Assembly: GCA_024683155.1 (NCBI GenBank)
Contig: JAIKYN010000036.1
Span: 1 to 49,470, forward strand
Length of the DNA: 49,470 nt
DNA from: Lachnospiraceae bacterium
GTDB lineage: Bacteria > Bacillota > Clostridia > Lachnospirales > Lachnospiraceae
Reading direction: 5' to 3'
In this document: positions 24,530 to 48,229 of the stretch, in pieces
How the letters are laid out: every line of letters begins with the position of its first letter
Position numbering within the stretch: position 1 is the stretch's first letter
Program-made: the position numbers and the translations under genes
The notes under the pieces: model-generated
Told to the model about the DNA's origin: nothing
Database searches by the model: none
What the model saw: only the letters and a program-made list of their open reading frames with translations

Positions 24530-25612
24530 TTACCGCTCGGTACAACTGATACAAGGATCAATTGTAAGCACCAGAAGGCCTACATCCGCCAGTTCTGTGT
24601 TCTTAAGCATCTCACAGAGACCGGGAACGTTTGCGAAGGTCGGTGTGCGGACTCTCATACGCTGCAGGTTCGGCTTACCGTTGGCTTTTACATAGTAGAA
24701 CGCTTCACCACGGGGCTGCTCAACACGCATGAAATATTCACCATCGGGGTTACCCTTAATGGCTACAGCCAGATCGCCTTCTGCAGGGATCTTTGCCACC
24801 GCCTGACGGATCAGATCGATGGACTGGAACAGCTCCTGCATACGAACGTAGCATCTTGCATAGCAGTCACCGTCTTCACTGATGATCGGCTCAAAATCAA
24901 GCATCGGATATGCGGCATACCCTAAGGTTCTCATATCGGAAACCACTCCGCTGGCTCTTGCAAACGGTCCAACGGCACCAAGGCGATTGATCTGTTCCTT
25001 GGTCAGTACACCGACACCCTTTAATCTGGACTGTACGGAATAGTCGTTGAAGAAGGTCTTCTTCATCTCCTTCAGTTCTTCTTCCACTTCATCCATGGTG
25101 GTTAAAATGATCTTCAGCATATCCGCGGGGATGTCTTTCATTACACCACCCACTTTATTTACAGAGAAGATCAGACGTCCGCCGGAGGTCATCTCCTGCA
25201 GATCCAGAACCTTCTCACGTACTCTCCAGCACTGATAGAACAGGTTCTCAAAACCAAAACCGTCTGCCAGAAGACCCAGCCATAACAGGTGGCTGTGCAT
25301 TCTTCCGATCTCAGCCCAGATGGTACGAAGGAATTTCGCACGATCGGGGATATCTACACCAAAGATATGCTCCACTGCTTCGCAATAGCCCATACCATGC
25401 TGGAAAGAGCAGATACCACAGGTTCTCTCTACAACATATGTCATCTGGTTAAAATCACGCTTATCAACCAGACCTTCCAAACCTCTGTGAATAAATCCGA
25501 TGGAAGGAATTGCTTCAATGACTCTCTCATCTTCTACTACCAGGTCAATATGAATTGGCTCCGGAAGAACGGGATGCTGAGGACCAAAAGGAATTACGCT
25601 TCTTTTACCCAT
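24530..25612 (-). CDS. echE: Group-4 [NiFe] hydrogenase large subunit (EchE/NuoD-like)
   Basis: N-terminal Ni-Fe motif RTCGICSFQH. The C-terminal DPCISCTER is followed directly by the stop codon. Confidence 0.93.
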   Translation of the reverse strand: MGKRSVIPFGPQHPVLPEPIHIDLVVEDERVIEAIPSIGFIHRGLEGLVDKRDFNQMTYVVERTCGICSFQHGMGYCEAVEHIFGVDIPDRAKFLRTIWAEIGRMHSHLLWLGLLADGFGFENLFYQCWRVREKVLDLQEMTSGGRLIFSVNKVGGVMKDIPADMLKIILTTMDEVEEELKEMKKTFFNDYSVQSRLKGVGVLTKEQINRLGAVGPFARASGVVSDMRTLGYAAYPMLDFEPIISEDGDCYARCYVRMQELFQSIDLIRQAVAKIPAEGDLAVAIKGNPDGEYFMRVEQPRGEAFYYVKANGKPNLQRMRVRTPTFANVPGLCEMLKNTELADVGLLVLTIDPCISCTER

Positions 25613-25613
25613 A

Positions 25614-25994
25614 TCAGTTCTCCTCCTCTGTCTTCTGAGGGCCCATCGGTGCTTCCTGACGGATCCGGTACAACTTGTTCTCGTAGTCCAGATTGATCAT
25701 CTTGATCTTCACACCAAAGAGTTCCTTCATCTCATTTTCGTAAAATACTGCAGCCGGTACGATCTCGGTGATACTGGGGATCTCGGTTGCGGGATCGATC
25801 ACCACACGAAGATTGTGCAGCTGATACGTCTCATAATCGGAAAAGGAATAGCTCAGCTCGAACTTTCCGTCTACAAAGGCAGCACATGCCTGAGAGAAAC
25901 GATATCCGGACTTGGTCAGTTCCAGAGATCTCTTAAGAAGATCGTCTGCTTCGATGACTTCCAGAATGTTTTCAGGATTTCTGATTTCACCCAT
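25614..25994 (-). CDS. echD: Ech small hydrophilic subunit (EchD, truncated NuoC-like)
   Basis: 126 aa. AVFYENEMKELFGVKI resembles the NuoC ERE-x-x-D-x-FG motif. Start is tightly coupled to the echC stop (TAATG). Confidence 0.8.
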   Translation of the reverse strand: MGEIRNPENILEVIEADDLLKRSLELTKSGYRFSQACAAFVDGKFELSYSFSDYETYQLHNLRVVIDPATEIPSITEIVPAAVFYENEMKELFGVKIKMINLDYENKLYRIRQEAPMGPQKTEEEN

Positions 25995-26467
25995 TAGTTC
26001 TGTGCTCCTTTCTTTGCAGCCTTCTTCTTTTCCTTCACCTGCGCCTTGTATTCATTGGAGCGCTGCTGGAAAATACCGACTGCCTTAATGATGCCGTCCA
26101 TGATGGCCTGCGGTCTTGCCGCACATCCGGGAACGTATACGTCCACGGGAATGGTAGTATCCGCACCACCTAAGATGTTGTAGCAATCCTTGAACACGCC
26201 GCCGGTACAAGCGCATACGCCAACTGCAACCACAACTTTGGGTCTGGGCATCTGATCATATAACTGCTTTACTGTATCCTGGTTCTGGGAATTAATACCG
26301 CCGGTTACCAGGAGAATATCTGCCTGCATCGGGTCACCTGTGTTCATGACACCCAGTCGTTCTGCGTCATAAACAGGAGTCAGGCAGGCAAGTACTTCAA
26401 TATCACATCCGTTACAGCTGGATCCATCGTAATGGAGCAGCCAGGGAGATCTTGTAATGTTTGCCAT
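25994..26467 (-). CDS. echC: Ech hydrogenase small subunit (EchC/NuoB-like)
   Basis: Fe-S ligand cysteines CNGCDIE, GVCACTGG and PGCAARP. Confidence 0.92.
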   Translation of the reverse strand: MANITRSPWLLHYDGSSCNGCDIEVLACLTPVYDAERLGVMNTGDPMQADILLVTGGINSQNQDTVKQLYDQMPRPKVVVAVGVCACTGGVFKDCYNILGGADTTIPVDVYVPGCAARPQAIMDGIIKAVGIFQQRSNEYKAQVKEKKKAAKKGAQN

Positions 26468-26485
26468 CGTTTCTACCTCTTACCT

Positions 26486-27349
26486 TTACTTCATAATCAT
26501 GAGAACCACCAGGTTAACGCCTGCAGAGAAGAAGGTGAGGATCCAGGTGATCTTCAACATATCCTGCCACTTCATACGGGCACTGGAGTTATCAATCAGG
26601 ATTTCCAGGAAATATACTGCCAGGATCACCAGAACCGCTGCGAGGATGCTGATGGGATTGGTATTTACAACAAACAGACCGATCACACCTAAAAGGAATA
26701 CATTCTCGTACCACTCGGTTACCTGGAACAGAGCCAGGTTCTTGGAACCCATCTCTGTGGTAAGGCCCTTGACCAGCTCCTGATGCATATGATGAGAAGT
26801 ACTGGTATCAAAGGGAGACTTACGCATCTTAATGGTAAGGATAAATACAAAGGCTACAAAACAACCGGGTAAATATACCAGATAGCTGACAGATGTCTGA
26901 GCGATATCCCCTACGTTAAAGCTGCCGGCTGCCAGATAGAAACCTACGCAGGTAAGCAGTACGGCAGGCTCATAAGCCATCATCTGGATCAGCTCTCTCT
27001 GTGCTCCGATGGAAGAATAAGGAGAACTGGTTACCACTGCTGCAAAATACAGGAAAGTTGCAGCGGTGGATAAGATGAAGAAGCACATCAGCATATCACT
27101 GCCTGCCCAGAACATAACACCGGTCAGGACCATGAGAATAAAATAGGTCAGGATCAGGAATGTCTGAGCGGTTGCCACGTTAATGGTTTCCTTGTTAAAT
27201 AACTTGATCACATCGTAGAACGGCTGTAAAAGCGGAGGTCCTACTCTTCGCTGCATCTTTGCGGAGATCTTACGATCGATCCCCTCCAGCAGACCACCGA
27301 TAAAAGGTGCCAGCAGAATATAGCAGATCACTAAAATCCATTTACTCAC
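26486..27349 (-). CDS. echB: Ech membrane subunit (EchB/NuoH-like)
   Basis: 8-TM profile. RRVGPPLLQPFYDVIKL is a NuoH/HycD-type motif. GTG start overlaps the echA TGA (GTGA). Confidence 0.9.
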   Translation of the reverse strand: MSKWILVICYILLAPFIGGLLEGIDRKISAKMQRRVGPPLLQPFYDVIKLFNKETINVATAQTFLILTYFILMVLTGVMFWAGSDMLMCFFILSTAATFLYFAAVVTSSPYSSIGAQRELIQMMAYEPAVLLTCVGFYLAAGSFNVGDIAQTSVSYLVYLPGCFVAFVFILTIKMRKSPFDTSTSHHMHQELVKGLTTEMGSKNLALFQVTEWYENVFLLGVIGLFVVNTNPISILAAVLVILAVYFLEILIDNSSARMKWQDMLKITWILTFFSAGVNLVVLMIMK

Positions 27350-29265
27350 AGACTCACACCTCCTAAGATCATACTTAACATAATTACCAGAAATGCAAGT
27401 GCAAAGATCTGGCTGGGGATCATCAGCTTACGCTGACCGATCACCTTGTGGAAATAGAAATTGGACAACCACAGAGTCTTCTCATCGCCGAAGGAATCGG
27501 TAAACTTGCGGTTATCACCGGTATTGATACCGTTCATATAAGAAAGCACGAACGTCTTACGCATTCTCTTACTGTATGCATAGGAAAGCACCGGTACTGC
27601 AAATACCACAACGATAACGGCCACCAGGGTATACAGGACACCCTGCGGGAGAACGTTCTGTGCCTCACCGAACATGCTGGTGATCAGAGGATTCACATAA
27701 ACCTCGGACAGCATGGGGAATAACATACACAGCAGAACCATAAGGACTGCATGGATGGTCAGGGAGAAAGTCTCATTGGGCTTGGTCACATCCCGGAAGG
27801 TCTTCTCTTTCAAATGGCTGGCACTGATGATCTTGCCCATCCACTTGGTCCAGTAGAAGGAAGTGGTGGCAGAACCGAAGCAGATGAAGAATACCAGCAT
27901 GATATTACGCTCATCTACAGATGCCTTCAGGGCAGACCACTTGGAGATCAGCATACCGAAGGGTGCCAGGAACATACCTGCGATACCGATGAACATGAAA
28001 ATGGCCAGTCTGGGCAGAATGAACAGCAGACCGTGCATATCTTCCACATCTCTGGAATGGAGGCAGTTCTCGGTTGCTCCAACGTCCTGGAATAACAGGG
28101 ACTTGGAGATCGCATGGAACAGCATTAAGAATACAGCAGCCCAGATGGTTTCCGGAGTACCTACGCCGGCGCAGGCAACCATCAGACCTAAGTTGGAGAT
28201 GGTGGAGAACGCCAGAACCTTCTTGGCATCACTTTGTGCGATGGCCATGAAGGAGGTGATCAGGAATGTGAAGCCGCCGATGAAAGCGATCATGGTACCG
28301 GTTGTGGTCTCAGCCATTGCAGGAGACAGACGAAGGAGGACATAGATGCCTGCCTTAACCATCGTGGCACTATGCAGCAGTGCGGAAGAAGGTGTGGGCG
28401 CAACCATGGCTCCGATCAGCCAGGTTGAGAACGGCATCTGTGCTGCCTTGGTCAGTGCTGCAAAAGCGATCAGTGCAACGGGAATGGTAGCAACTACCTT
28501 GCCGGCTACACCTGCTTCAACCAGAGCATGCAAAGAAACAGTACCTGCATTGTATCCGAAATAAACAATTCCGATCGCCAGCGCAGTACCGCCGAATAAG
28601 TTCATCCATAATGCACGGAAGGAATTGTGGATCGCCTGCTCTTCCTTGGTATAACCGATCAGCAGGAAGGAAATGATGCTGGTCAGTTCCCAGAAGAAAT
28701 CGATCCAAAGCAGATCCTCGGAAAGTACAAAGCCAAACATCGCACCTAAAAACAGGAACAGCAGAGAGAAGAAATAATATCTGCGATCTTCCAGGTCCGC
28801 ATGATGCTTGTGATAACCGTGCATGTAACCTACGGCATAGATGATGATCAGAGTTCCGATCACCGCAATGATCAGTACCATTAAAATGGAAAGATGATCG
28901 ATGTAAATGTGATCACACTCTTCCACCTCCGGGCCGTAAAGCTCAAAATATGCGATTAACATTGTGGGAATGATAGAAAGTAAACTGATCCAGTACTTTC
29001 TATACTTGAAACACAATACCGTTACAAATACCATGAGCAACAGCTCTGCGCCAAGGATCACATGATCCACCAGCTCCGTATCTGCATAACAGGTAATGGT
29101 CGTGCATCCACCCATGATCCACTGAACCAGCAACGTAAGTGCGGCACCGACGATCACGGCTGAACAGACATACGCAAGCGCTGCTCTCGCCTTGCTGTTT
29201 CTTGTTAAAAACATAACGAACGAAACGCAAAAAGGGAACAGTACTAAGAATGGAACAACTGCCAT
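27346..29265 (-). CDS. echA: Ech membrane antiporter-like subunit (EchA/NuoL-like)
   Basis: 639 aa, about 16 TM helices. Antiporter-type motifs (WLIGAMVAPTPSSALLHSATMVKAGIY). GGAGG RBS. Confidence 0.9.
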   Translation of the reverse strand: MAVVPFLVLFPFCVSFVMFLTRNSKARAALAYVCSAVIVGAALTLLVQWIMGGCTTITCYADTELVDHVILGAELLLMVFVTVLCFKYRKYWISLLSIIPTMLIAYFELYGPEVEECDHIYIDHLSILMVLIIAVIGTLIIIYAVGYMHGYHKHHADLEDRRYYFFSLLFLFLGAMFGFVLSEDLLWIDFFWELTSIISFLLIGYTKEEQAIHNSFRALWMNLFGGTALAIGIVYFGYNAGTVSLHALVEAGVAGKVVATIPVALIAFAALTKAAQMPFSTWLIGAMVAPTPSSALLHSATMVKAGIYVLLRLSPAMAETTTGTMIAFIGGFTFLITSFMAIAQSDAKKVLAFSTISNLGLMVACAGVGTPETIWAAVFLMLFHAISKSLLFQDVGATENCLHSRDVEDMHGLLFILPRLAIFMFIGIAGMFLAPFGMLISKWSALKASVDERNIMLVFFICFGSATTSFYWTKWMGKIISASHLKEKTFRDVTKPNETFSLTIHAVLMVLLCMLFPMLSEVYVNPLITSMFGEAQNVLPQGVLYTLVAVIVVVFAVPVLSYAYSKRMRKTFVLSYMNGINTGDNRKFTDSFGDEKTLWLSNFYFHKVIGQRKLMIPSQIFALAFLVIMLSMILGGVSL

Positions 29266-38048: not shown

Positions 38049-39344
38049 TTATTTCTTCAGGGGACTTTCACGATAAATGATATCACTTCTTCCGGGTCCG
38101 TTACTTACCATGGTGATGGGGTAACCGATCTGCTCCTCGATGAATTCCACATACTTGCGGCAGTTCTCGGGAAGATCCTCATATTTCTTAATGCCGCGGA
38201 TCTCGCATTTCCATCCGGGAAGGGTCTTATATACCGGCTTCGCCTTGGCAAGCTGTGTGGTTACGGGGAAATCGGTGGTCACGGTTCCGTCCACATCGTA
38301 CCCTACGCAAACCGGGATCTCATCCAGATAGCCCAGAACATCCAGTACCGTAAAAGCAACATCGGTGGTTCCCTGCAGTCTGCAACCGTACTTGGAAGCT
38401 ACGCAGTCAAACCATCCCATTCTTCTGGGACGACCGGTGGTTGCGCCGTACTCTCCGCCGTCACCGCCGCGTCTTCTAAGCTCATCGGCTTCCTGTGCAT
38501 CTTCGATCTCGGATACGAAAAGGCCGGCTCCTACTGCAGAAGAATAAGCCTTGCAAACCGTTACGATCTGCTTGATCTCATAAGGCGGAAGACCTGCTCC
38601 GATGGCACCGTAGGCTGCCAGTGTGGAGGAAGAGGTAACCATGGGATAGATACCGTGATCGGGATCCTTCAGGGTTCCCAGCTGACCTTCCAAAAGGACG
38701 GTCTTGCCTTCCTTCAGCGCTTTATCCAGATATAAGGAAACATCGCATACGTAAGGCTCTACCATGGTGCGATATTCCTTCAGGGTATTCATTAATTCTT
38801 CCACATCCAGTAAAGGCTTGTGATACAGATGCTCTAACAGGATGTTCTTGGTGACCACAACCCGCTCCAGTTTCTCTCTGAGAGCTGCTTCATCAAAGAG
38901 CTCGCTGACCTGGAAACCGATCTTGGCATACTTATCGGAATAGAAAGGCGCGATACCGGACTTGGTGGAACCGAAGCTCTTGCCGGCCAGACGTTCTTCC
39001 TCATACTGATCAAATAAAATATGATAAGGCATTACGATCTGTGCACGATCGGATACCAGGATGTGAGGCATGGGAACATTACGATCCGTAATGGACTTGA
39101 TCTCGTTAAACAGGATCGGGATGTTTAATGCCACACCGTTACCGATGATGCTGGTGGTATGCTGATAAAATACACCGGAAGGAAGGGTATGTAATGCGAA
39201 CTTACCGTAGTTGTTCACAATGGTATGTCCTGCATTGGCACCACCCTGAAAGCGAATGATAATGTCCGCATTCTCTGCCAGCATATCTGTGATCTTTCCT
39301 TTACCTTCGTCGCCCCAGTTGGCGCCGACTACTGCCTTAACCAT
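38049..39344 (-). CDS. purA: Adenylosuccinate synthase
   Basis: GANWGDEGKGK P-loop, GNGVAL, TTGRPRR. Confidence 0.96.
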   Translation of the reverse strand: MVKAVVGANWGDEGKGKITDMLAENADIIIRFQGGANAGHTIVNNYGKFALHTLPSGVFYQHTTSIIGNGVALNIPILFNEIKSITDRNVPMPHILVSDRAQIVMPYHILFDQYEEERLAGKSFGSTKSGIAPFYSDKYAKIGFQVSELFDEAALREKLERVVVTKNILLEHLYHKPLLDVEELMNTLKEYRTMVEPYVCDVSLYLDKALKEGKTVLLEGQLGTLKDPDHGIYPMVTSSSTLAAYGAIGAGLPPYEIKQIVTVCKAYSSAVGAGLFVSEIEDAQEADELRRRGGDGGEYGATTGRPRRMGWFDCVASKYGCRLQGTTDVAFTVLDVLGYLDEIPVCVGYDVDGTVTTDFPVTTQLAKAKPVYKTLPGWKCEIRGIKKYEDLPENCRKYVEFIEEQIGYPITMVSNGPGRSDIIYRESPLKK

Positions 39345-39566: not shown

Positions 39567-41000
39567 TTATACATTGATGGTGGCGGTTACACCCAGCAGA
39601 TCCTTGTTGGCATCCAGAATGGGCTGTACGGTATTCTTAAGGAAATTCGTGGTCTGCTGCGGCGCATACCCTACATAAAGCTTCGGATCCATGGACTTCA
39701 TCAGGTCCTCTTTCTTAAGACCGAACTTGGGATCGGCTGCGATAAGATCCAGCAGATTATTCTCCAGGCCCTCTTCCTTCACATGCTTGCCTGCTTCCAT
39801 GGAAAGGACACGAATGGCTTCATGGAGTTCCTGACGGTCTCCGCCGGCATTGACCGCATCCATCATGATATTCTCGGTAGCCATGAAAGGAAGCTCTGCC
39901 ATCATATGCTTCTCGATCACCTTGGGATATACCACGAGGCCATCCACCACGTTGAGACACAGATCCAGAATACCGTCCGTTGCCAGGAATCCTTCGGGCA
40001 CGGAAAGCCGCTTGTTGGCGGAATCATCCAGGGTACGCTCAAACCACTGGGTTGAAGATACAATGGCGGGGTTTAATGCGTCTGCGATGACGTAATCGGC
40101 CAGAGAGCAGATTCGCTCGCTTCGCATGGGATTTCTCTTATAAGCCATGGCGGAAGATCCGATCTGTTTCTTCTCGAAGGGTTCTTCCACTTCCTTCAGA
40201 TGCTGCAGCAGACGGATGTCATTGGCCATCTTGTGGGCGCTGGCTGCGATCCCTGCCAGTACGTTCAGTACCCGGGTATCCACCTTACGGGAATAGGTCT
40301 GTCCGGATACGGGATAGCATCCGCTAAAGCCCATCTTTTCCGCGATCATGGGATCCAGACGATCCACCTTGGACGTATCTCCGTGGAACAGTTCCATGAA
40401 AGAAGCCTGGGTTCCGGTGGTTCCCTTACAGCCCAGAAGCTTCATATGATCCAGGGTAAATTCCAGTTCTTCCAGATCCAGTAAGAATTCCTGCATCCAC
40501 AGCGTCGCACGTTTTCCGACGGTGGTGGGCTGTGCGGGCTGGAAATGTGTAAAGGCCAGGGTAGGCTGTGCCTTATATTTATCCGCAAACTTAGAAAGCT
40601 CTGCCAGTACGTTGATCAGCTTCTTACGGACCAGCTTCAGGGCTTCGGTCATTACGATGATGTCGGTATTATCGCCTACATAACAGGAGGTAGCTCCCAG
40701 ATGGATGATCCCCTTGGCACCGGGACACTGCACGCCGTAAGCATATACATGGCTCATAACGTCATGGCGCACTTCCTTCTCCCGGGCGATGGCCACTTCG
40801 TAATTGATATCCTCTGCGTGAGCCTTCAGCTCGGCGATCTGTTCGTCGGTGATGTTAAGACCCAGTTCCTTCTCGGTTTCCGCAAGGGCGATCCACAGTT
40901 TTCTCCAGGTGTGGAACTTCATGTCCTGTGAAAAGATGAACTGCATCTCCTTGCTGGCATAACGCTGGGAAAGCGGGCTTTGATAGATTGCTGTTTCCAT
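39567..41000 (-). CDS. purB: Adenylosuccinate lyase
   Basis: 477 aa. Fumarate-lyase signature GSSAMAYKRNP. Confidence 0.95.
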   Translation of the reverse strand: METAIYQSPLSQRYASKEMQFIFSQDMKFHTWRKLWIALAETEKELGLNITDEQIAELKAHAEDINYEVAIAREKEVRHDVMSHVYAYGVQCPGAKGIIHLGATSCYVGDNTDIIVMTEALKLVRKKLINVLAELSKFADKYKAQPTLAFTHFQPAQPTTVGKRATLWMQEFLLDLEELEFTLDHMKLLGCKGTTGTQASFMELFHGDTSKVDRLDPMIAEKMGFSGCYPVSGQTYSRKVDTRVLNVLAGIAASAHKMANDIRLLQHLKEVEEPFEKKQIGSSAMAYKRNPMRSERICSLADYVIADALNPAIVSSTQWFERTLDDSANKRLSVPEGFLATDGILDLCLNVVDGLVVYPKVIEKHMMAELPFMATENIMMDAVNAGGDRQELHEAIRVLSMEAGKHVKEEGLENNLLDLIAADPKFGLKKEDLMKSMDPKLYVGYAPQQTTNFLKNTVQPILDANKDLLGVTATINV

Positions 41001-41100: not shown

Positions 41101-42291
41101 TCAATGGTATTTTTCTCTGATTTCATCTGCATATTGCGGATAAGATACAAGCAGATTGTCTAATTCGGATCTTGTCATCTCCAGCGTCGCCTTGTTGTAA
41201 TCCATCTGCTTGCGCAGTTCCTGACGCTGCAGGATCAGACGATGGCGGATCTCCACCATTTCCCGGTTGTCGAAGATGGCCTGGGCCTGGTGGATCCAGA
41301 TCTCCGGTGTCTTTACCCGGTATCTTCGAAGCAGCTGCACCAGAAGGGACTTGTACCGGTTCAGGTCATCCTCCATCTCCATGAAATGCTGGCGCTCTTC
41401 CTTTTCTTCCAGATACTTTTTATACATCCGCTCAAACTGCTGCCCGTTCTTCACTTTATACTTCAGGCACAGATAGTCGATGAGGTTCTTATTGTTCACA
41501 TAGCGGATCTTCACCGTATTTTGCAGACCGATGAGACGGTTGATGGTATTCTCCACCCGGCGAAGCTCCTTTTTGGCATCCATATAGCGGGCAAACAAAA
41601 AAGCCGTGACCACAGCCGCTGCTGCCGCTGTAAGCATATATCCCAGCTGGGTATCCAGATGAAACGCCATCTGCAGGATCACCAGCATCACAAAGCAGAC
41701 CATCAGGGCTACCAGACAGATCATGGCCATTCCCTTATAATTGGCCATATCCCTCTGCAGCTCCCGTCTGCGGTACTGATAGGCACTTCTTTCTCCGTCC
41801 AGGCGGCGCAGATCCTTCCGGATCTTCTCATGGTACTCTTCCGCTCCTTTTAATTTAGCGATGCCTTCCTCCGCTTCTTCACCGATGCGTTCCATGGCTT
41901 CAAACTGATCATCGGGAAGGCGGTCCTTCTTCTCTCTGTATTTTACCCGGTCTACCTGAAGATTCTCGATCTTCAGAGCATAGGAACAGAGCTCCGTCTT
42001 ATCTTCCGGAGGAAGGGACTCGATCTCCTCCATATCCGTTAAAAGGGAGGTGACCCGGGCATATTCTTCTTCCAGGCGCTCTAACTCCGCGCCGGCTTCT
42101 TCCACCCTTGCCACGCAATTGTCCACGTAGTCTCCCCGTTGCATGGGATTGTGCATATCCAACTTGCGCTGGCGCACCGGGATCAGCTGTTCCGGATTTT
42201 TGACCAGTTCTTCTTCAGAGCTTAGCTCCTCGGGAGCATCCAGGTCTTCTTCTGTCATCTTACGTCGGAAAAAATCAAAAAATCGACTCAT
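41101..42291 (-). CDS. Unknown: coiled-coil protein with a central two-helix membrane hairpin (gene 4 of the operon)
   Basis: 396 aa. Acidic, heptad-rich N-terminal 185 aa. TM1 at about 188-209 (MAMICLVALMVCFVMLVILQMAF) and TM2 at about 217-235 (GYMLTAAAAAVVTAFLFARY). Basic helical C-terminal 160 aa. Start is 3 nt after the upstream stop. Confidence 0.85.
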   Translation of the reverse strand: MSRFFDFFRRKMTEEDLDAPEELSSEEELVKNPEQLIPVRQRKLDMHNPMQRGDYVDNCVARVEEAGAELERLEEEYARVTSLLTDMEEIESLPPEDKTELCSYALKIENLQVDRVKYREKKDRLPDDQFEAMERIGEEAEEGIAKLKGAEEYHEKIRKDLRRLDGERSAYQYRRRELQRDMANYKGMAMICLVALMVCFVMLVILQMAFHLDTQLGYMLTAAAAAVVTAFLFARYMDAKKELRRVENTINRLIGLQNTVKIRYVNNKNLIDYLCLKYKVKNGQQFERMYKKYLEEKEERQHFMEMEDDLNRYKSLLVQLLRRYRVKTPEIWIHQAQAIFDNREMVEIRHRLILQRQELRKQMDYNKATLEMTRSELDNLLVSYPQYADEIREKYH

Positions 42292-42294
42292 AGG

Positions 42295-43128
42295 TTATGC
42301 CTCGTCCGATGCACTTTCTCGGTAGTCATACTTCAGGTTCTGGATCCGGCGATGGATCTCGTCAAAATAATCGTACTGCTTGCCATCGGTGATCTCTTTG
42401 GTCTTTACATATTCCGGAGAGTAGGTCCAATCCCGCTCCAGGGTGCTCACATCGGCCTCCAGCGCCATGGATGCACGGTTCCATTCGGGATGGGCCGAGA
42501 TAAACCGGATATATTCTTCCGTAGGCGCATACATCCTTACAGCTGCCAGATACGCCTGGATAATGGTCTGATCCTCCGGCAGAAGATCCGCCGCCCGGGC
42601 AAACGCATCCGCCGCTTCCTGATACAGAAACAGGTTAGCCAGGGCCGTTCCCATGTTGCACAGAACATCCCCATGGAACTTCCGGTCTGCATCGGGCATA
42701 TCTCCCAGCAGCTCCTGGTATTCCTCCACCGCACGGATGTACTTCCCTACAGAGAGCATGTAATCCGCATGATGACGGCGTTTCTCATAGGTGGTAAGGC
42801 CGGAGCCCGTCTGCAGGATATTCTCTACATAATTCACCTGCCTGGTATCATAGTTCCCGGTGTAATCCAGGATGATCCCCGCCAGTGCCCCTGCCGAACC
42901 GTTCTGGTTCATCAGCTCGTGAAGACTCTTGGCCAGATCCTTTAATCCCAGAGAATGATCGATCCAGCTGACCAGATCCCGATCCACCAGAGAATCCTCC
43001 AGCACAAAGGCATTCTCACAGATGACATAGCACAGCTCTTCGATGCTGTACACATGAATGTCCGCGTTCTTAACATAATATGGAGTTTGGGCACGGTTCC
43101 CGATGGGAACAAATACTCTTCCTGCCAT
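42295..43128 (-). CDS. Unknown: small alpha/beta N-domain plus TPR-like helical repeats (gene 3 of the operon)
   Basis: 277 aa. TPR-like stretch ADYMLSVGKYIRAVEEYQELLG...CNMGTALANLFLYQEAADAFARAADLLP. Start is 6 nt after the upstream stop. Confidence 0.85.
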   Translation of the reverse strand: MAGRVFVPIGNRAQTPYYVKNADIHVYSIEELCYVICENAFVLEDSLVDRDLVSWIDHSLGLKDLAKSLHELMNQNGSAGALAGIILDYTGNYDTRQVNYVENILQTGSGLTTYEKRRHHADYMLSVGKYIRAVEEYQELLGDMPDADRKFHGDVLCNMGTALANLFLYQEAADAFARAADLLPEDQTIIQAYLAAVRMYAPTEEYIRFISAHPEWNRASMALEADVSTLERDWTYSPEYVKTKEITDGKQYDYFDEIHRRIQNLKYDYRESASDEA

Positions 43129-43134
43129 AGTGCT

Positions 43135-44460
43135 CTATAACTGCTCCTTCTCTCCTACATCCAGTTCTTCCATCCAGCGCCGCATGGTGGCCTGGAAGAT
43201 CTCTCCGAAGCCCAGATCCTGTACCTGGATCCGTGCCCTGGAAGGACTGATCATAGCGATGTGTATGTGTAATCTTGTGGTCATACGGGGGCGTTCCGGA
43301 AGTCCGTCCAGCACCATCTCCGCCTGCCAGGGCTTGGACCCTGTAAGAGGGGTAATGGTAAAAGTCAGCACATTGCCGCTTTCCATCATCAGGTCGTACT
43401 CTTTCTCCGCCTCATACCAGTTCTGTCCCGCATCGATCAGTGCCAGATAACTGCCGCTTCCGCGACGAAATACCGGCATACCGATGTTAGACTTACATTT
43501 CTCCTCCCCCAGAAAAACGATCTTGCGATCTTCCTCCGGAGGGCGGGATTTATCCACAGCTGCATAAGCAGCCCCTTTGCTGTACAGGTTGCTTCCCTTG
43601 AACACATGCCGTCCCCGGCACAGAAACTGCAGGGAAGCCTTCATCCATTCCTGCCGGAACCCGTCTCCGATGAGATAAACGGAAGACACTACACGCTCTG
43701 CGCACAGCTCTTCACAGGCCTTCAGGAAATCGTTGTCCAGATTCTCTTCTATGGTCCTGCGGTATACCCCGTCCTCCGGCCACTGGGTGATCCCCGGTAC
43801 ATCCGGATGCTCCTTCTTCTCGATGAAGGCTACCACCGGTTTGGTATGGTGATTGCACTCCATCCGGTAGCTGGTCAGGGGGCCGTCTTCCAGGTCGAAG
43901 ACAATGGTCTGGTAGGTCCATAACGCTTCCGGTTGATGGACATTGTATTCAAAGATACTCTCGGTATAATTCTGGAACATGACCCGGGTCTTCTTAAGGA
44001 CCAGACCTGCCGTCACCTCCTGCAGCACCTGTACCATTCGGGAATCAAAATTACTGCAGGTGATCATCAGCACTTCCGGTGTACCGCTCTGCTGCACGGA
44101 AAGCATGGACAGTGACCTGCGGACATACAAGGTAAGCAGTGCCACCGGATCGAATTCCTCCTGATCCACGGTAACGCTCTGCCCCTCATAGGCCAGGGAC
44201 ACCAGATGATCCACCAGGACCCCTTCACCGTTCTGCGCCCGTTTTACCGCCTCCCGGCCAAAGAACCACTGACCGGCGCCGTACCGTTTACACAGGCAGG
44301 TGGGAATGTTGAACTGCTCCGCACCGGGTACCATGGAAACGGTCTCCGCTTCCCGGCTGCCCTCTTTCACAAAGCTGATCTGGGAGAAACGGTCGTTGAG
44401 ATCGTATCCTACATAGATCTTTTCATTCAGTTGTCTCTCCTGTTCCGGTCGCAGCATCAT
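43135..44460 (-). CDS. Divergent compact Hsp70-like protein with degenerate nucleotide-binding loops (gene 2 of the operon)
   Basis: 441 aa, alignable by eye to Dna[17 protein letters not shown] vs [38 protein letters not shown] vs [38 protein letters not shown] vs [23 protein letters not shown] vs [44 protein letters not shown] vs [33 protein letters not shown]. ATGA overlap with gene 1. Confidence 0.85.
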   Translation of the reverse strand: [441 protein letters not shown]

Positions 44461-47400
44461 GTGTCTCGACTAATCCTCGGTTTAAATAGTTTTCGGGTCA
44501 TATACAGATTCTTATGGTAATCCATATACAGCGTATTGACGGTCTCGTAATCCTGCAGGATCTCTGCCGTCACCATATCGTTCAGCATACCGAACCGGCT
44601 GCCGGCGAAGAACTCGGTGGTTCCGATATCGTTCCTGAGCACCGTGGCAGATTCCGTGATCTGCTGGCTGTCGCCTTCCCGTTCGGTAATGTAATATTGC
44701 AGGCTCTCCCCGAAGAACAGGATAAAGCTCATACCGCACACCCCGCCGAACATATCCCGCATGGGTTCGCTGCGATACTCTTCCTCGTCTTCTTCGTCCT
44801 GTATGATCCGGTAATGGATCTCTGTAATGGCTCCCGGACGGGAGCGGTATTCGATCATGGTCCGGTCTGCAAAGCGCCACATTTCCGGAATGATATCAAT
44901 GTATTCCTGAAAATAAGGAAGGGCGATATTTCTTGCAGTAAGGTTAAGAAGAAAGGTTCTGAGATGCTTCTTTTCTTCCTCTCCGATCTCTTCCCGGTTC
45001 TTGGAGTAATAACGGGTATAGGCCAGTTCCACCGCTTCGGAGAATTCTTCCCCGTTGGCCGTCATCCTGGAAATACATTGCAGGATGTAGCCGGGAAGCA
45101 GGTTGTCTTTTACAAAATAACCGAAGCAGTTCAGCTCGATAAAGGCACGGATCAGATCATGGTTCCCCGCTGCCTTCACGTAGCGGGAGAAGATCTCCAT
45201 CTTATCGCCGATAAAGAAACCGGTGTACATCATCTGTACCAGCAGTTGTTCCACCAGATCGTAGGTATCGATATCGAAGGCATCGGCTGCTTTCCACAGG
45301 CTTCGAAGATCCCGCAGCCGTCCGTGGAAGAATTTCACCAGATAGCGCAGCAGCACTTCATCGTACTTCCCCCGGGAGAAGGCATAATATGCCACCTTGA
45401 CCCGCAGCAGTTCCTCCTCGTCAGGCGTCTCCGCGATGATGCTGCTGATCAGGCGAACGATCACCTTGGGGTCTTCCCCGTCAATGCCGTAAATGCAGAT
45501 CCAGTTGTAGGCTTTCTCCTGCATGCCTCTTGCTATGAAGAAACGAATGGCCTCTGCTCTGGCCGCCGCGTCCAGTCCTTCCGGCCGAAGATCCTGCAGG
45601 CAGGCATCCAGTCCCGCCATATCGTCCTTGCTGTAGCTGTAAGAAGCCAGTTTTACCGGCAAATGTCTGCGCAGCTCCACATCCACGGCTTCCGCATTCA
45701 TCAGCTGACGGAGTCTCACTTCATTTTCTTCCGTCACCTTGATCTCGTCGTCTTCCCCGCAGCACAGATACATGTTAAGACCGGTATGGTCCTTGATCTC
45801 CTGGGAGATCTGCTTTAAGAACTTGCCGGGAAGCATAAGCTTTTCCAGCACGAAATCATCTTCGGCACTGCTGCGGTTGCCCTGATCATCCTCCAGCAGC
45901 AGGTAATAATCTCTGGAATAAATGGGGAATTTAGCTTCCCCGTCCATTAAGGGGAACTTCTGCTCCGTGGCAGCCCCTTTCTGAAGAAGTACCACAAAGC
46001 GGGCATTCTTTCGCTCGGTCTGCACCCGGTTCATAAACAGGATCGGGATAAATGCACGGGCTGTCTCATCCTTCAGCATCTGATCCGTTACCACCACACG
46101 GTAGAGATAGGCCAGATTGCGGTTCACATTTCCCCGATGGATCTGATCCAGTACAAAGCTTTCGATCTGCTCGCTGTAATTATCAACGATCTCCCGATAG
46201 TCATCCTTATTCTGCCGGCGCAGCAAATTGGCATAGAGGAAGGCCTTGTGCTCGCTGTCCAGTTCACTGCGGTATGCATAATAAAGCAGCACCATCTTAG
46301 GCACCGCCCGGTCGCTTTCGGGATCCACGCTCATCATGTAATATTCGATGAGATTGGTGATCTTAAGACCCGCTTCCACCCCTTTCTCGTACCAGGTAAG
46401 ATACCTGGGGCCGGTGCAGTTTCCTTTGATCAGATAGGCACAGATGGTTTCCAGCGTCTCCGGATCGGGAGACTGGGCATAAGCCGCTTCCAGGATCCGC
46501 AATACCCGAACGTCGAACTCCTGCATACGAGGCGCCATATAATGCAGCTGGCGGATGATCTCTTCCGTCAGGTATCCGTTCCTTGCCGCAAACAGCAGGA
46601 TACGGATCTCAAAGGTGTTCAGATGGAATAACAGGGCGGGATCGTTCCGCCACAGGATCAGTGCCTCAATATAAAGCACCGGACTGATGCAGCCTCTTTC
46701 AAACTGTTCCTGCAAAAGCATCCATTTTCCCGAAGAGGAATCATAAAACTCCGGAGAAAGATATAACAGGAGCCAGGCCAGGCACCAGTTATCCGGATAT
46801 TGTTCATACAAACGGCGTACATCCACCGCCGTGCTGTTTACATAGGTTTCATCCCGCTTCAGCAGGGTGGTAAGATACAGATAATACCCCCAGATGGCAG
46901 GGTTCTTGTCATCACTGCCCATAATGGCATTACGGGCTCTGTCCAGAGTCCACTGGGCCTCATTTAACTTCGCCTGGGTTGCCAGCACCTGGGCACGATA
47001 TAACTGAGGAACCGGATCCTCCGGACGCTCTCCCTGCATCTGGCTCAGCACCCGGTCCGTCTCTTCCATCCAGGCCGACTTGCTCTTTTTCTTCATGCGA
47101 TAGGCCTGATAGGATCGGATCAGCTCGAAGATCTCCTGTTCCTCCTTCAGTTTATCCTTGGCATGGATGTAATTGGGATCGGCTTTTTCCACTTCAATGG
47201 GAACCTGCAGCGTGTTCTCATGAAACCGCACCAGGATCTTGCCGAAGTTCTTGCCGGTATGAAGTTTTTCTCCATGAAGATCAAAAAGGATCTTGCCCTG
47301 ATTGCCCAGAAAATCGTTGTCGGTAAGATGAGACTTCTCTAAGACGATGAAATCCCCTTCGGCTTCCACATCCACCGATGTGGCGCCCCATCCGTTCCGG

Positions 47401-48047
47401 ACGATGGACAGGAAATGACGGCTGACCAGATCGTCTACCGTTACCTGCAGACGGGAGTCTTCTACTATATATTCGATCCGCTGTTTCTTACCGATGGAGA
47501 CCAGGAACTCTTCCATGTTCTCTTCCCGGCCGGGAATAACGGAAAGTCCCCGATACAGCGAAAGATATACGGCATCATTGCCGATGAGGATGCTTTCAAA
47601 GGAAGGGCTGTAAAAAACCGTAAGCGCTTCTTCCCAGCTGGCCTTGGCCAGGTTGGCAAAATGGATCAGATTACGGATCTCTCCCAGGGAAGAATGCATG
47701 GGAGCCATAGACATGACAACAGACCAGGAAAGGGTATACTCTCCCTGGTTACTGACAATACAGAATTCTCCGGTCGCTGTGTCTCCAAAGCGCATGCCTC
47801 TGGCATTGAAGCGAAATGCGATCTCCTCATCGGTACCCACAAAATGCGGTGTAAGACACTCCATGCGGACATCGCAGGAATAGACATATCCTTCGGTCAG
47901 ACGCCCTGACTCTCCCAGGATATGGAAAGACCCTTCGAATTCCCCCGGCTCTGTTAATGTGATCTCCACCTTCTCGCAGGAGAACGACAACGAGCCGACC
48001 TCATAATCAAATTTTCCCCTTAATATCTGATCGATGATCTGCTTCAA
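44457..48047 (-). CDS. Unknown 1196-aa cytosolic protein: two N-terminal beta-sandwich-like modules plus long helical-repeat regions (gene 1 of the operon)
   Basis: Uninterrupted 3.6-kb ORF with the window's typical codon bias. TTG start (48047-48045) with AGGA about 10 nt upstream. No signal peptide and no TM segment. Confidence 0.85.
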   Translation of the reverse strand: MKQIIDQILRGKFDYEVGSLSFSCEKVEITLTEPGEFEGSFHILGESGRLTEGYVYSCDVRMECLTPHFVGTDEEIAFRFNARGMRFGDTATGEFCIVSNQGEYTLSWSVVMSMAPMHSSLGEIRNLIHFANLAKASWEEALTVFYSPSFESILIGNDAVYLSLYRGLSVIPGREENMEEFLVSIGKKQRIEYIVEDSRLQVTVDDLVSRHFLSIVRNGWGATSVDVEAEGDFIVLEKSHLTDNDFLGNQGKILFDLHGEKLHTGKNFGKILVRFHENTLQVPIEVEKADPNYIHAKDKLKEEQEIFELIRSYQAYRMKKKSKSAWMEETDRVLSQMQGERPEDPVPQLYRAQVLATQAKLNEAQWTLDRARNAIMGSDDKNPAIWGYYLYLTTLLKRDETYVNSTAVDVRRLYEQYPDNWCLAWLLLYLSPEFYDSSSGKWMLLQEQFERGCISPVLYIEALILWRNDPALLFHLNTFEIRILLFAARNGYLTEEIIRQLHYMAPRMQEFDVRVLRILEAAYAQSPDPETLETICAYLIKGNCTGPRYLTWYEKGVEAGLKITNLIEYYMMSVDPESDRAVPKMVLLYYAYRSELDSEHKAFLYANLLRRQNKDDYREIVDNYSEQIESFVLDQIHRGNVNRNLAYLYRVVVTDQMLKDETARAFIPILFMNRVQTERKNARFVVLLQKGAATEQKFPLMDGEAKFPIYSRDYYLLLEDDQGNRSSAEDDFVLEKLMLPGKFLKQISQEIKDHTGLNMYLCCGEDDEIKVTEENEVRLRQLMNAEAVDVELRRHLPVKLASYSYSKDDMAGLDACLQDLRPEGLDAAARAEAIRFFIARGMQEKAYNWICIYGIDGEDPKVIVRLISSIIAETPDEEELLRVKVAYYAFSRGKYDEVLLRYLVKFFHGRLRDLRSLWKAADAFDIDTYDLVEQLLVQMMYTGFFIGDKMEIFSRYVKAAGNHDLIRAFIELNCFGYFVKDNLLPGYILQCISRMTANGEEFSEAVELAYTRYYSKNREEIGEEEKKHLRTFLLNLTARNIALPYFQEYIDIIPEMWRFADRTMIEYRSRPGAITEIHYRIIQDEEDEEEYRSEPMRDMFGGVCGMSFILFFGESLQYYITEREGDSQQITESATVLRNDIGTTEFFAGSRFGMLNDMVTAEILQDYETVNTLYMDYHKNLYMTRKLFKPRISRDT

Positions 48048-48113
48048 ATTCGTAATTCCTATAGTTTTTTACATACATAATGAGTATATCATAAAAAACT
48101 TTCAAAAAATATA

Positions 48114-48142
48114 TTGACATGATTGTATCATTGTTTTATTGT
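48114..48142 (+). promoter_or_regulatory. Candidate promoter of the gntR-ABC operon
   Basis: TTGACA (48114-48119), 17-nt spacer, TATTGT (48137-48142). Confidence 0.45.
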
Positions 48143-48176
48143 ATTAGTAGCTTAATACAGTAATTCAAATTTGAAT
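48140..48176. promoter_or_regulatory. Two palindromic candidate operators (GntR/YtrA type)
   Basis: TGTATTA-GTAGCT-TAATACA (48140-48159) overlaps the -10 element. The perfect 14-bp palindrome ATTCAAATTTGAAT lies at 48163-48176. Confidence 0.45.
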
Positions 48177-48229
48177 GCAACATTACGTAACTGCAAACAA
48201 CGCAAACGAACAAAGAGAAAGGAAACCAT

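Follow-up and report, generated by a model that had tools for sequence, protein, structure and literature searches.

What could four closely packed genes make together when none of their products belongs to a characterized family? Such an operon lies at positions 41101-48047 on the minus strand of contig JAIKYN010000036.1 (assembly GCA_024683155.1) from a Lachnospiraceae bacterium; the whole 49,470-nucleotide (nt) stretch analyzed is hereafter called the window. An initial annotation made from the sequence alone described the operon as encoding a giant scaffold, a pseudo-Hsp70, a tetratricopeptide repeat (TPR)-like protein, and a membrane coiled-coil protein. Our analysis points, with confidence a little short of even, to a family-specific, vertically inherited Lachnospiraceae housekeeping operon that would encode one membrane-anchored, enzyme-free complex on the cytoplasmic face.

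The four-gene operon and its conservation

The four genes, designated g1 to g4 in order of transcription, are located as follows:

44457-48047, minus strand: g1, 1196 amino acids (aa), TTG start, soluble DUF5717 protein
43135-44460, minus strand: g2, 441 aa, DUF5716 protein
42295-43128, minus strand: g3, 277 aa, protein with a TPR region
41101-42291, minus strand: g4, 396 aa, membrane protein

Inspection of the sequence confirmed the sizes, coordinates, and common strand first assigned to the genes, together with their three junctions. The end of g1 overlaps the start of g2 (...gac aca TGA overlapping ATG ATG; a 4-nt ATGA overlap at 44457-44460), a 6-nt gap separates g2 from g3 (TAG-agcact-ATG), and a 3-nt gap separates g3 from g4 (TAA-cct-ATG). 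The four are real genes and not chance open reading frames (ORFs), because g1 and g2 match Pfam families and many homologues exist. The TTG start of g1 was supported by the DUF5717_N profile, since residue 1 of g1 falls on position 1 of the model and relatives also align from residue 1. A 434-aa antisense ORF lies inside g1 (44514-45818, plus strand), and more long antisense ORFs lie inside g2 to g4 (e.g., 41242-41853 and 42352-42945); all of these are most likely non-coding shadow ORFs.

No characterized family was found for any of the four proteins: Pfam yielded only domains of unknown function (DUFs) and TPR, and NCBIfam, PADLOC, and PHROGs gave nothing usable. Sequence and profile searches of the PDB with g1, g2, and g4 returned either nothing or coiled-coil noise. 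The initial annotation had recognized no characterized family in g1, g3, or g4, and profile searches of all four proteins likewise assigned none of them to characterized families with a known joint function. Judged by sequence, g1 and g2 are full-length, high-scoring members of the uncharacterized Pfam families DUF5717 (PF18984/PF18983) and DUF5716 (PF18980), and thus known unknowns, and g3 and g4 are in no described family. A full-text search of a literature library found nothing on DUF5717, DUF5716, or such an operon.

Homologues numbered at least 1020 for g1, at least 1463 for g2, and at least 3370 for g4, mostly at 40-50% identity (approximately 50% across homologues of g4), and the named sources among the matches listed were all Lachnospiraceae. 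An exhaustive profile search with g2 yielded 1779 clusters at 50% identity, and g3 homologues were found by tblastn within related loci. Gene order was surveyed by tblastn in 86 loci from isolate genomes, metagenome-assembled genomes (MAGs), and metagenomes, many of them near-duplicates that represent roughly 40 independent lineages. The order g1-g2-g3-g4 and the common strand were kept in 75 of the 86 loci, and in the other 11 the missing gene lay beyond the contig end. Over 66 loci, the median intergenic gaps were 16-21 nt, calculated from automatic ORF boundaries that were misplaced in a few loci. The same order occurred in Butyrivibrio sp. AE3009 and in a Lachnospiraceae MAG. The gene-neighborhood comparison thus found the four genes strictly co-localized in related genomes, in agreement with the tight coupling first proposed.

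Three distant loci (L087-L089), whose proteins share 22-33% identity with those of the window, also keep the gene order. L087 retains the full block (1180, 423, 270, and 392 aa), and contig ends truncate g1 and g4 in L088 and L089. The neighbors of the distant blocks differ (MgsA, ValRS, GT2, MCP, FeoB, and GltX in L087 and L088, the two loci scanned), and because the block is kept while these neighboring genes change, we regard the four genes as a conserved unit. Genes upstream of g1 were not conserved among related loci either.

The three distant loci are deposited as UNVERIFIED "Bacteriophage sp." records from human feces (MT835486.1, MT835719.1, and MT835988.1). Housekeeping genes were present in L087 (MgsA and ValRS) and L088 (GltX and FeoB), and L089 was checked for the four-gene block only. 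L087 carries the Eshraghiella crossota protein, which was also found on a 2.5-Mb contig. These records appear to be pieces of bacterial chromosomes that contaminate the phage collection.

Structural features of the encoded proteins

The initial annotation read g2 as an Hsp70 homologue with degenerate ATP-binding loops. This protein matched Pfam DUF5716_C (PF18980) at residues 131-434 (E = 3e-99; 332 bits against a cutoff of 34.7). Its AlphaFold2 model scored 90.4 in the predicted local distance difference test (pLDDT) and 0.83 in predicted template modeling (pTM). When this model was searched against the PDB with Foldseek, the best 50 matches were all Hsp70-family chains (DnaK, BiP, Hsc70, mortalin, Ssb, and Ssz1), with E-values of 1.6e-20 to 4e-15, identities of 10-14%, TM-scores (TMq) up to 0.59, and approximately 500-550 aligned columns. 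The structural alignment spanned the nucleotide-binding domain and the substrate-binding beta-domain, such that g2 resembles the canonical Hsp70s DnaK, BiP, and Hsc70 in having a two-lobed actin-like domain followed by a peptide-binding beta-sandwich.

In sequence, g2 differs strongly from the canonical Hsp70s, and its domain is approximately 70 residues shorter. The HSP70 profile (PF00012) was not matched at E up to 0.1 in the Pfam and NCBIfam searches, and no Hsp70 was found for g2 among all PDB sequences, either with phmmer on the single sequence or with a 40-sequence profile. Alignment of the g2 family with E. coli DnaK by hhalign covered the beta-domain end only and was not significant (E = 0.12); in this alignment, the g2 motif L-[DE]-G-L-P-E-R-P...D-L-G-F-G-E was collinear with L-D-G-I-N-P-A-P-R-G...K-D-K-N-S-G-K of Hsp70.

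Canonical Hsp70s bind ATP through the phosphate-1 motif D-L-G-T-T-N-S, the phosphate-2 motif D-L-G-G-G-T-F-D, the adenosine motif G-G-x-x-R-x-P, and the catalytic residues Lys70 and Glu171. We read the corresponding site from an alignment of 40 g2 family sequences (A1). The phosphate-1 loop was G-Y-[DE]-L-G-x-x-x-S, with both positions of the Thr-Thr pair variable; the phosphate-2 loop was [DE]-Y-x-(indel)-x-x-L-K, lacking the conserved Gly/Thr residues (GGG-T); and the adenosine loop was L-I-G-[ED]-G-F, lacking the GG motif. A conserved Lys at the position of DnaK K70 was not found in the alignment, and E167, which probably corresponds to DnaK E171, was invariant. The Asp/Glu residues of the two phosphate loops and E167 were all that was retained of the ATP site, and the loss of the ATP loops was common to all 40 members.

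The last structured element of the g2 model is a strand at residues 428-434 of 441, and because the model ends directly after the beta-domain, g2 is predicted to have no helical lid; the EEVD tail of canonical Hsp70s is absent as well. Hydropathy analysis found no transmembrane segment in g2. In Pfam and NCBIfam searches, g1, g3, and g4 showed neither a DnaJ nor a GrpE domain, and in its encoded partners the operon also differs from canonical Hsp70 systems. Taken together, the model, its Foldseek matches, and the loops of the 40 homologues bear out the original view of g2 and support a pseudo-Hsp70 at the fold level.

The product of g3 comprises a conserved N-terminal domain of approximately 100 aa (G10, Y17, EELCY at 30-34, and W55), for which the searches gave no match, and a TPR region at approximately residues 110-200. 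The window protein had one TPR_2 match (residues 154-186; E = 4e-5), whose 23.7 bits were below the cutoff of 27. Among 29 orthologues from related loci, TPR_12 was matched in 16 and TPR_2 in 15. A g3 family profile searched against the PDB retrieved solved TPR proteins over residues 110-230 (E = 8e-4 to 7e-3); the best was yeast Tah1 (E = 8e-4), and IFT88, Cdc27, and PilF scored about the same. The TPR-like character first assigned to g3 is in line with the orthologues and the PDB profile search, by which g3 is probably a small TPR protein. No transmembrane segment was found in g3 by hydropathy. With two to three predicted TPR motifs, g3 resembles the TPR co-chaperones Tah1, Hop, SGTA, Tom70, and UNC-45. 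It differs from them in its unique N-terminal domain and in the absence of an EEVD-type tail from the operon, and the position matching the clamp residue Asn N12 of Tah1 is a conserved Asp in g3 (by-eye correspondence in alignment A4).

Evidence linking g2 and g3 came from natural gene fusions, of which only full-length database proteins were retained. Among the best 150 g2 representatives, seven proteins of 685-765 aa (P0368, P0404, P0405, P0406, P0414, P0472, and P0496) ran on from the end of the g2 beta-domain, across a short linker, to a full-length g3, and fused C-terminal halves matched the window g3 in BLASTP with E-values of 5e-41 and 3e-23. One fusion derives from the isolate Butyrivibrio sp. 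NC3005 (WP_026504008.1), and one fused cluster contains 1109 members on many contigs, which shows that the fusions are not assembly artifacts. Among the representatives, the nearest relatives of each fused protein were unfused, which, as a nearest-neighbor comparison and not a phylogeny, suggests several independent fusion events. Such repeated fusion points to a g2-g3 complex. The site at which g3 is attached is the place of the alpha-helical lid in canonical Hsp70s. Apparent g1-g2/g2-g3 fusions in four surveyed loci (L022, L023, L031, and L086) contained stop codons and were rejected as ORF-boundary artifacts.

A comparison can be drawn with yeast Ssz1, an Hsp70-fold protein that in the ribosome-associated complex (RAC) does not cycle as an ATPase but is stably paired with a helical co-chaperone, Zuotin. 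Ssz1 chains (6sr6 and 7x3k) were among the structural matches to g2, and the fusions suggest that g2, like Ssz1 with Zuo1, is apparently paired obligately with one partner. However, Ssz1 binds ATP and keeps recognizable Hsp70 motifs; its partner is a J-protein, whereas g3 is probably a TPR protein; RAC resides on ribosomes, whereas g4 would provide a membrane anchor; and common descent of Ssz1 and g2 is not evident beyond the Hsp70 superfamily. By analogy, g2 would work, at most, like this non-cycling structural Hsp70.

The largest protein, g1, is a full-length DUF5717 protein, matching PF18984 (DUF5717_N) at residues 1-874 (E = 2e-282; 939 bits) and PF18983 at residues 883-1188 (E = 2e-91; 307 bits), both with a gathering cutoff of 25 bits. 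In its AlphaFold2 model (36 homologues; pLDDT 85, pTM 0.55), the N-terminal part contains a beta-sandwich (20-124), helices (127-184), a second beta-sandwich (193-288), and an alpha-solenoid (294-670), followed in the C-terminal part by a small beta-domain (672-736), another alpha-solenoid (741-1059), a beta-sandwich (1063-1137), and two terminal helices. The modeled protein is composed of three to four immunoglobulin (Ig)-like beta-sandwiches and two TPR-like solenoids. Foldseek against the PDB matched this model only with generic TPR superhelix scaffolds (Naa15, Ski3, Ctr9, IFT-A, and UNC-45) and tandem Ig/ASH-like sandwiches (ciliary central-pair proteins and titin), all at TMq ≤0.16. Because of these low TM-scores, we consider g1 to have no global structural relative; its likeness to UNC-45 and other TPR scaffolds lies in the long TPR-like solenoids. 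The model and the Foldseek matches agree with the beta-sandwich and helical-repeat protein foreseen in the initial annotation. Neither Pfam nor Foldseek of the model against the PDB revealed a catalytic domain in g1, and hydropathy revealed no transmembrane or other hydrophobic segment. A proto-coatomer- or clathrin-like nature of g1 was considered and dropped, since Ig-like sandwiches are present and beta-propellers are absent.

Hydropathy showed a single hydrophobic stretch in g4, a hairpin at approximately residues 182-237 whose loop has 9 residues and whose flanks are rich in K/R. On the basis of this hairpin and the positive-inside rule, both large domains of g4 are predicted to be cytoplasmic. 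Alignment of the family (A3) showed that g4 begins with a hydrophobic-basic peptide (M-[GSK]-x-F..., [KR]-rich), which is MSRFFDFFRRKM in the window and MGLFKWLFGKK or MGFIKNLLARF elsewhere; residues 1-30 are encoded at approximately 42202-42291. This peptide may form an amphipathic helix at the membrane, or else it may act as a short linear motif recognized by the g2 clamp or by a TPR groove. After the peptide come an acidic linker, in which a Trp is nearly invariant, and a helical cytoplasmic region with the motif Y..VTSYL.DMEEIEALP. The C-terminal domain carries the motifs LQN.VKIRYVNN.NL.DYL.LKY, EKEER, Y.VKDP..W.HQ, EMVEIRH.LI.RRQ.LR..MDYN, and YPQY. Of the architecture first proposed for g4, the transmembrane hairpin with both ends in the cytoplasm agreed with hydropathy and the alignment. 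The long coiled coils on both sides stayed unproven; given its sharp motifs and prolines, the C-terminal half resembles a folded domain for interactions more than it does a simple coiled coil. No family was matched above cutoff by g4 in Pfam, NCBIfam, or per-member Pfam scans of the alignment. Matches to DUF2207_C, Holin-X, Bestrophin-like, and SLATT_4 in the family searches, which included per-member scans of the g3 and g4 alignments, were below cutoff and were discarded as noise driven by transmembrane segments.

Upstream region and downstream purine genes

Features flanking the four genes are as follows:

48077-48105, minus strand: promoter-like region with an extended -10 element, TGATATACT, at 48091-48083, 35 nt ahead of the g1 start codon
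41001-41100, minus strand: 100-nt spacer between g4 and purB, with no intrinsic terminator recognized and a weak promoter-like match at 41104-41075
39567-41000, minus strand: purB, assigned from its translation and 75-95% identity to the same gene in related loci
38049-39344, minus strand: purA, assigned in the same way and at the same range of identity

A consensus scan upstream of g1 identified TTGAAA/CATTAT at 48105-48077. Of 40 loci, 32 had an extended -10 element (TGnTA[TC]A[AC]T) no farther than 150 nt upstream of g1, compared with a mean of 0.7 in shuffled sequences; it was located 28-37 nt before the g1 start codon in half of the 32 loci and up to 110 nt before it in the remainder. Because this element is conserved, g1 probably stands first in its transcription unit, behind a short leader and a promoter of the housekeeping type. 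An Rfam search of the whole window matched only a tRNA and found no riboswitch or RNA leader.

According to the initial annotation, the operon shares an AT-rich upstream region of about 180 bp with a divergent YtrA-type regulator. Regulators of this type are short GntR-family proteins that have a reduced C-terminal domain and are encoded beside an ABC transporter. The shared region is present in the window, in which an AT-rich stretch of 182 nt (48048-48229) separates g1 from a divergent gene for a 124-aa protein with a GntR helix-turn-helix domain (E = 1e-15), directly followed by an ABC ATPase gene. The shared arrangement was not kept in other genomes, and because this neighbor is not conserved beside g1 elsewhere, the GntR/YtrA-like regulator is probably not dedicated to the operon. 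A 14-bp perfect palindrome, ATTCAAATTTGAAT, lies between the two divergent genes at 48163-48176 and is probably the operator of the GntR-family regulator; in the closest relative (L001), the sequence is nearly the same and reaches the half-site AAATTGAAT where the excerpt stops.

Purine-biosynthesis genes (purB, purA, purF, and purC), on which the initial annotation did not remark, lie downstream of g4 and in its orientation in nearly every main-clade locus that offers enough DNA beyond g4. The distance from g4 to the next gene was 47-205 nt when this was purB and 44-216 nt when it was purC or purF; in four loci (L037, L077, L063, and L060), the actual gap was approximately 20-60 nt without a terminator. 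Some lineages have genes for an amino-acid ABC transporter between g4 and purC. Promoter-like TATAAT elements precede the pur gene in many loci, and the linkage is absent in L050, in Eshraghiella crossota, and in two other distant loci. In the window, purB and purA are conserved neighbors linked to the four-gene module and possibly co-transcribed with it in part; the linkage could reflect retained synteny, a mixed housekeeping super-operon, or a functional tie. The initial annotation had placed the operon apart from metabolic pathways. This holds for the operon itself, in which no enzyme domain was detected, but is less clear for its setting, given that most loci have purine genes downstream of g4 in the same orientation, in some cases only approximately 20-60 nt away.

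The other genes of the window are ordinary chromosomal housekeeping genes, encoding a LysR regulator, a HAD hydrolase, an aspartate aminotransferase, an M20 peptidase, and NADH-dehydrogenase/antiporter-like subunits. A minus-strand cluster at 24530-29265 encodes membrane subunits of the Proton_antipo_M and NADHdh types; this Mrp/complex-I-like or hydrogenase-associated module appears unrelated to the four-gene operon.

Proposed assembly and alternative explanations

From the fusions and the operon structure, we infer that all four proteins assemble into one complex. We rate it as a degenerate, lidless, and membrane-tethered version of an Hsp70/TPR-type assembly; an Hsp70 fold and TPR proteins at a membrane recall Tom70 and Sec72. 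In this proposed complex, g4 would serve as the anchor through its two-helix membrane hairpin, with its large domains facing the cytoplasm. g2 would be an Hsp70-derived permanent clamp or adaptor that has kept the actin-like domain and the peptide-clamping beta-sandwich; because the lid and the Gly/Thr phosphate loops are lost, it probably does not cycle with ATP, and its sequence suggests independence of nucleotide altogether. g3 would be the obligate TPR partner of g2, possibly standing in for the lid, and g1 a 1196-aa Ig/TPR platform recruiting or organizing further proteins. The beta-domain of g2 would clamp a linear partner peptide, for which the hydrophobic-basic N-terminus of g4 is a candidate; DnaK-type clefts prefer peptides of hydrophobic-basic composition.

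Several points weigh against this proposal. The residues of g2 were matched to those of DnaK by the order of motifs and secondary structure, not by superposition. The interdomain cleft of g2 is strongly conserved (D20, Q27, S29, E167/S168, G265, and W272), and some ligand may therefore still bind there, possibly a nucleotide in a non-canonical way. Fusion support for the presumed binding among the four proteins is confined to the g2-g3 pair, and both the replacement of the lid by g3 and the role of the g4 N-terminal peptide as clamp ligand are conjecture. The conserved linkage to the purine genes is left unexplained by this proposal.

Cleft conservation is also an argument for an active, client-specific chaperone, in which g2 would use nucleotide through non-canonical loops, g3 and g1 would be TPR co-chaperones, and g4 a tether, for instance for the assembly or insertion of a membrane or envelope complex. 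A peptide-binding beta-domain is part of the g2 fold, the solved TPR protein closest to g3 by sequence is the Hsp90/Hsp70-binding co-chaperone Tah1, and g1 resembles TPR scaffolds such as UNC-45, at a generic repeat level only. However, the Tah1 match is no better than those to the generic TPR proteins IFT88, Cdc27, and PilF, and the operon proteins carry no conserved EEVD-like tail. In the aligned g2 sequences, the Gly/Thr phosphate-2 loop is missing with indels, the phosphate-1 Thr-Thr is variable, and the K70 Lys is lacking; g2 has no lid, and neither a J-domain protein nor a GrpE-like exchange factor is encoded in the operon. We consider an active chaperone unlikely. The actin-like domain of g2 raises the further alternative of a cytoskeletal or morphogenetic system, in which g2 would polymerize like MreB, FtsA, or ParM on the g4 anchor, and g1 and g3 would be scaffolds in shaping or dividing the cell. 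Association with the membrane is established for FtsA and MreB, and such a role would suit genes that belong to the core set of a single bacterial family and have a housekeeping-type promoter. Yet actin-like filament formers accounted for none of the best 50 structural matches, all of which were Hsp70-family and included the beta-sandwich. Moreover, actin-like polymerization normally needs ATP binding, for which g2 lacks the loops, and division or cell-wall genes are not consistently nearby, leaving this explanation a slim chance.

The genomic setting bears on two other explanations. The conserved downstream linkage, contrasting with upstream neighbors that are not conserved, and the short terminator-free gaps in some loci would fit a membrane scaffold or regulator for PurC, PurF, PurB, and PurA, or a sensor binding a purine nucleotide in its Hsp70-like cleft. 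Ancestral synteny or a mixed housekeeping super-operon explains the pattern equally well, though, and a dedicated purine role is at odds with the transporter inserted before purC, the promoter-like elements ahead of the pur gene, and the absence of linkage in L050 and in Eshraghiella crossota and the two other distant loci, where the four genes are nevertheless kept; we judge it highly unlikely. That the operon has the same chromosomal location next to purine genes throughout the family speaks against an anti-phage or conflict system or a mobile element. This idea draws on the occurrence of Hsp70-like and TPR proteins in some predicted conflict systems (the term "Hsp70-like" occurs 12 times in the CoCoNuT paper, PMC11090510) and on four tblastn matches of g2 in a phage collection. 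These matches proved to be UNVERIFIED fecal scaffolds, two carrying housekeeping genes and one the Eshraghiella crossota protein, and there was no plasmid match. None of the four proteins matched a PADLOC or PHROG family, and, in line with the absence of enzyme motifs first noted, the operon encodes no effector domain of the nuclease, protease, pore-forming, or NTPase type. A defense or mobile-element role is already largely refuted, and we give it next to no weight.

The membrane-anchored complex that we favor could also be taken further. The operon may encode an undescribed membrane machine in which an Hsp70 fold acts as a nucleotide-independent clamp, a TPR cap replaces the lid, and a giant Ig/TPR platform serves a Lachnospiraceae-specific process apart from general folding; in one version, this machine would organize or regulate the downstream purine enzymes, much as a purinosome scaffold would, but in bacteria. 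We regard this extension as doubtful.

Lachnospiraceae are among the most abundant gut bacteria of humans and animals, and the four-gene operon is widespread in the family. A family-restricted, 7-kb module of four genes without an assigned function is a clear gap in the knowledge of these bacteria. It also presents an unusual fate of an Hsp70, which is predicted to be lidless, has its ATP loops erased, remains under strong selection, and has been repeatedly fused to a TPR partner. The identity of the partner clamped by g2 would show whether bacteria use pseudo-Hsp70s structurally, as eukaryotes do with Ssz1.

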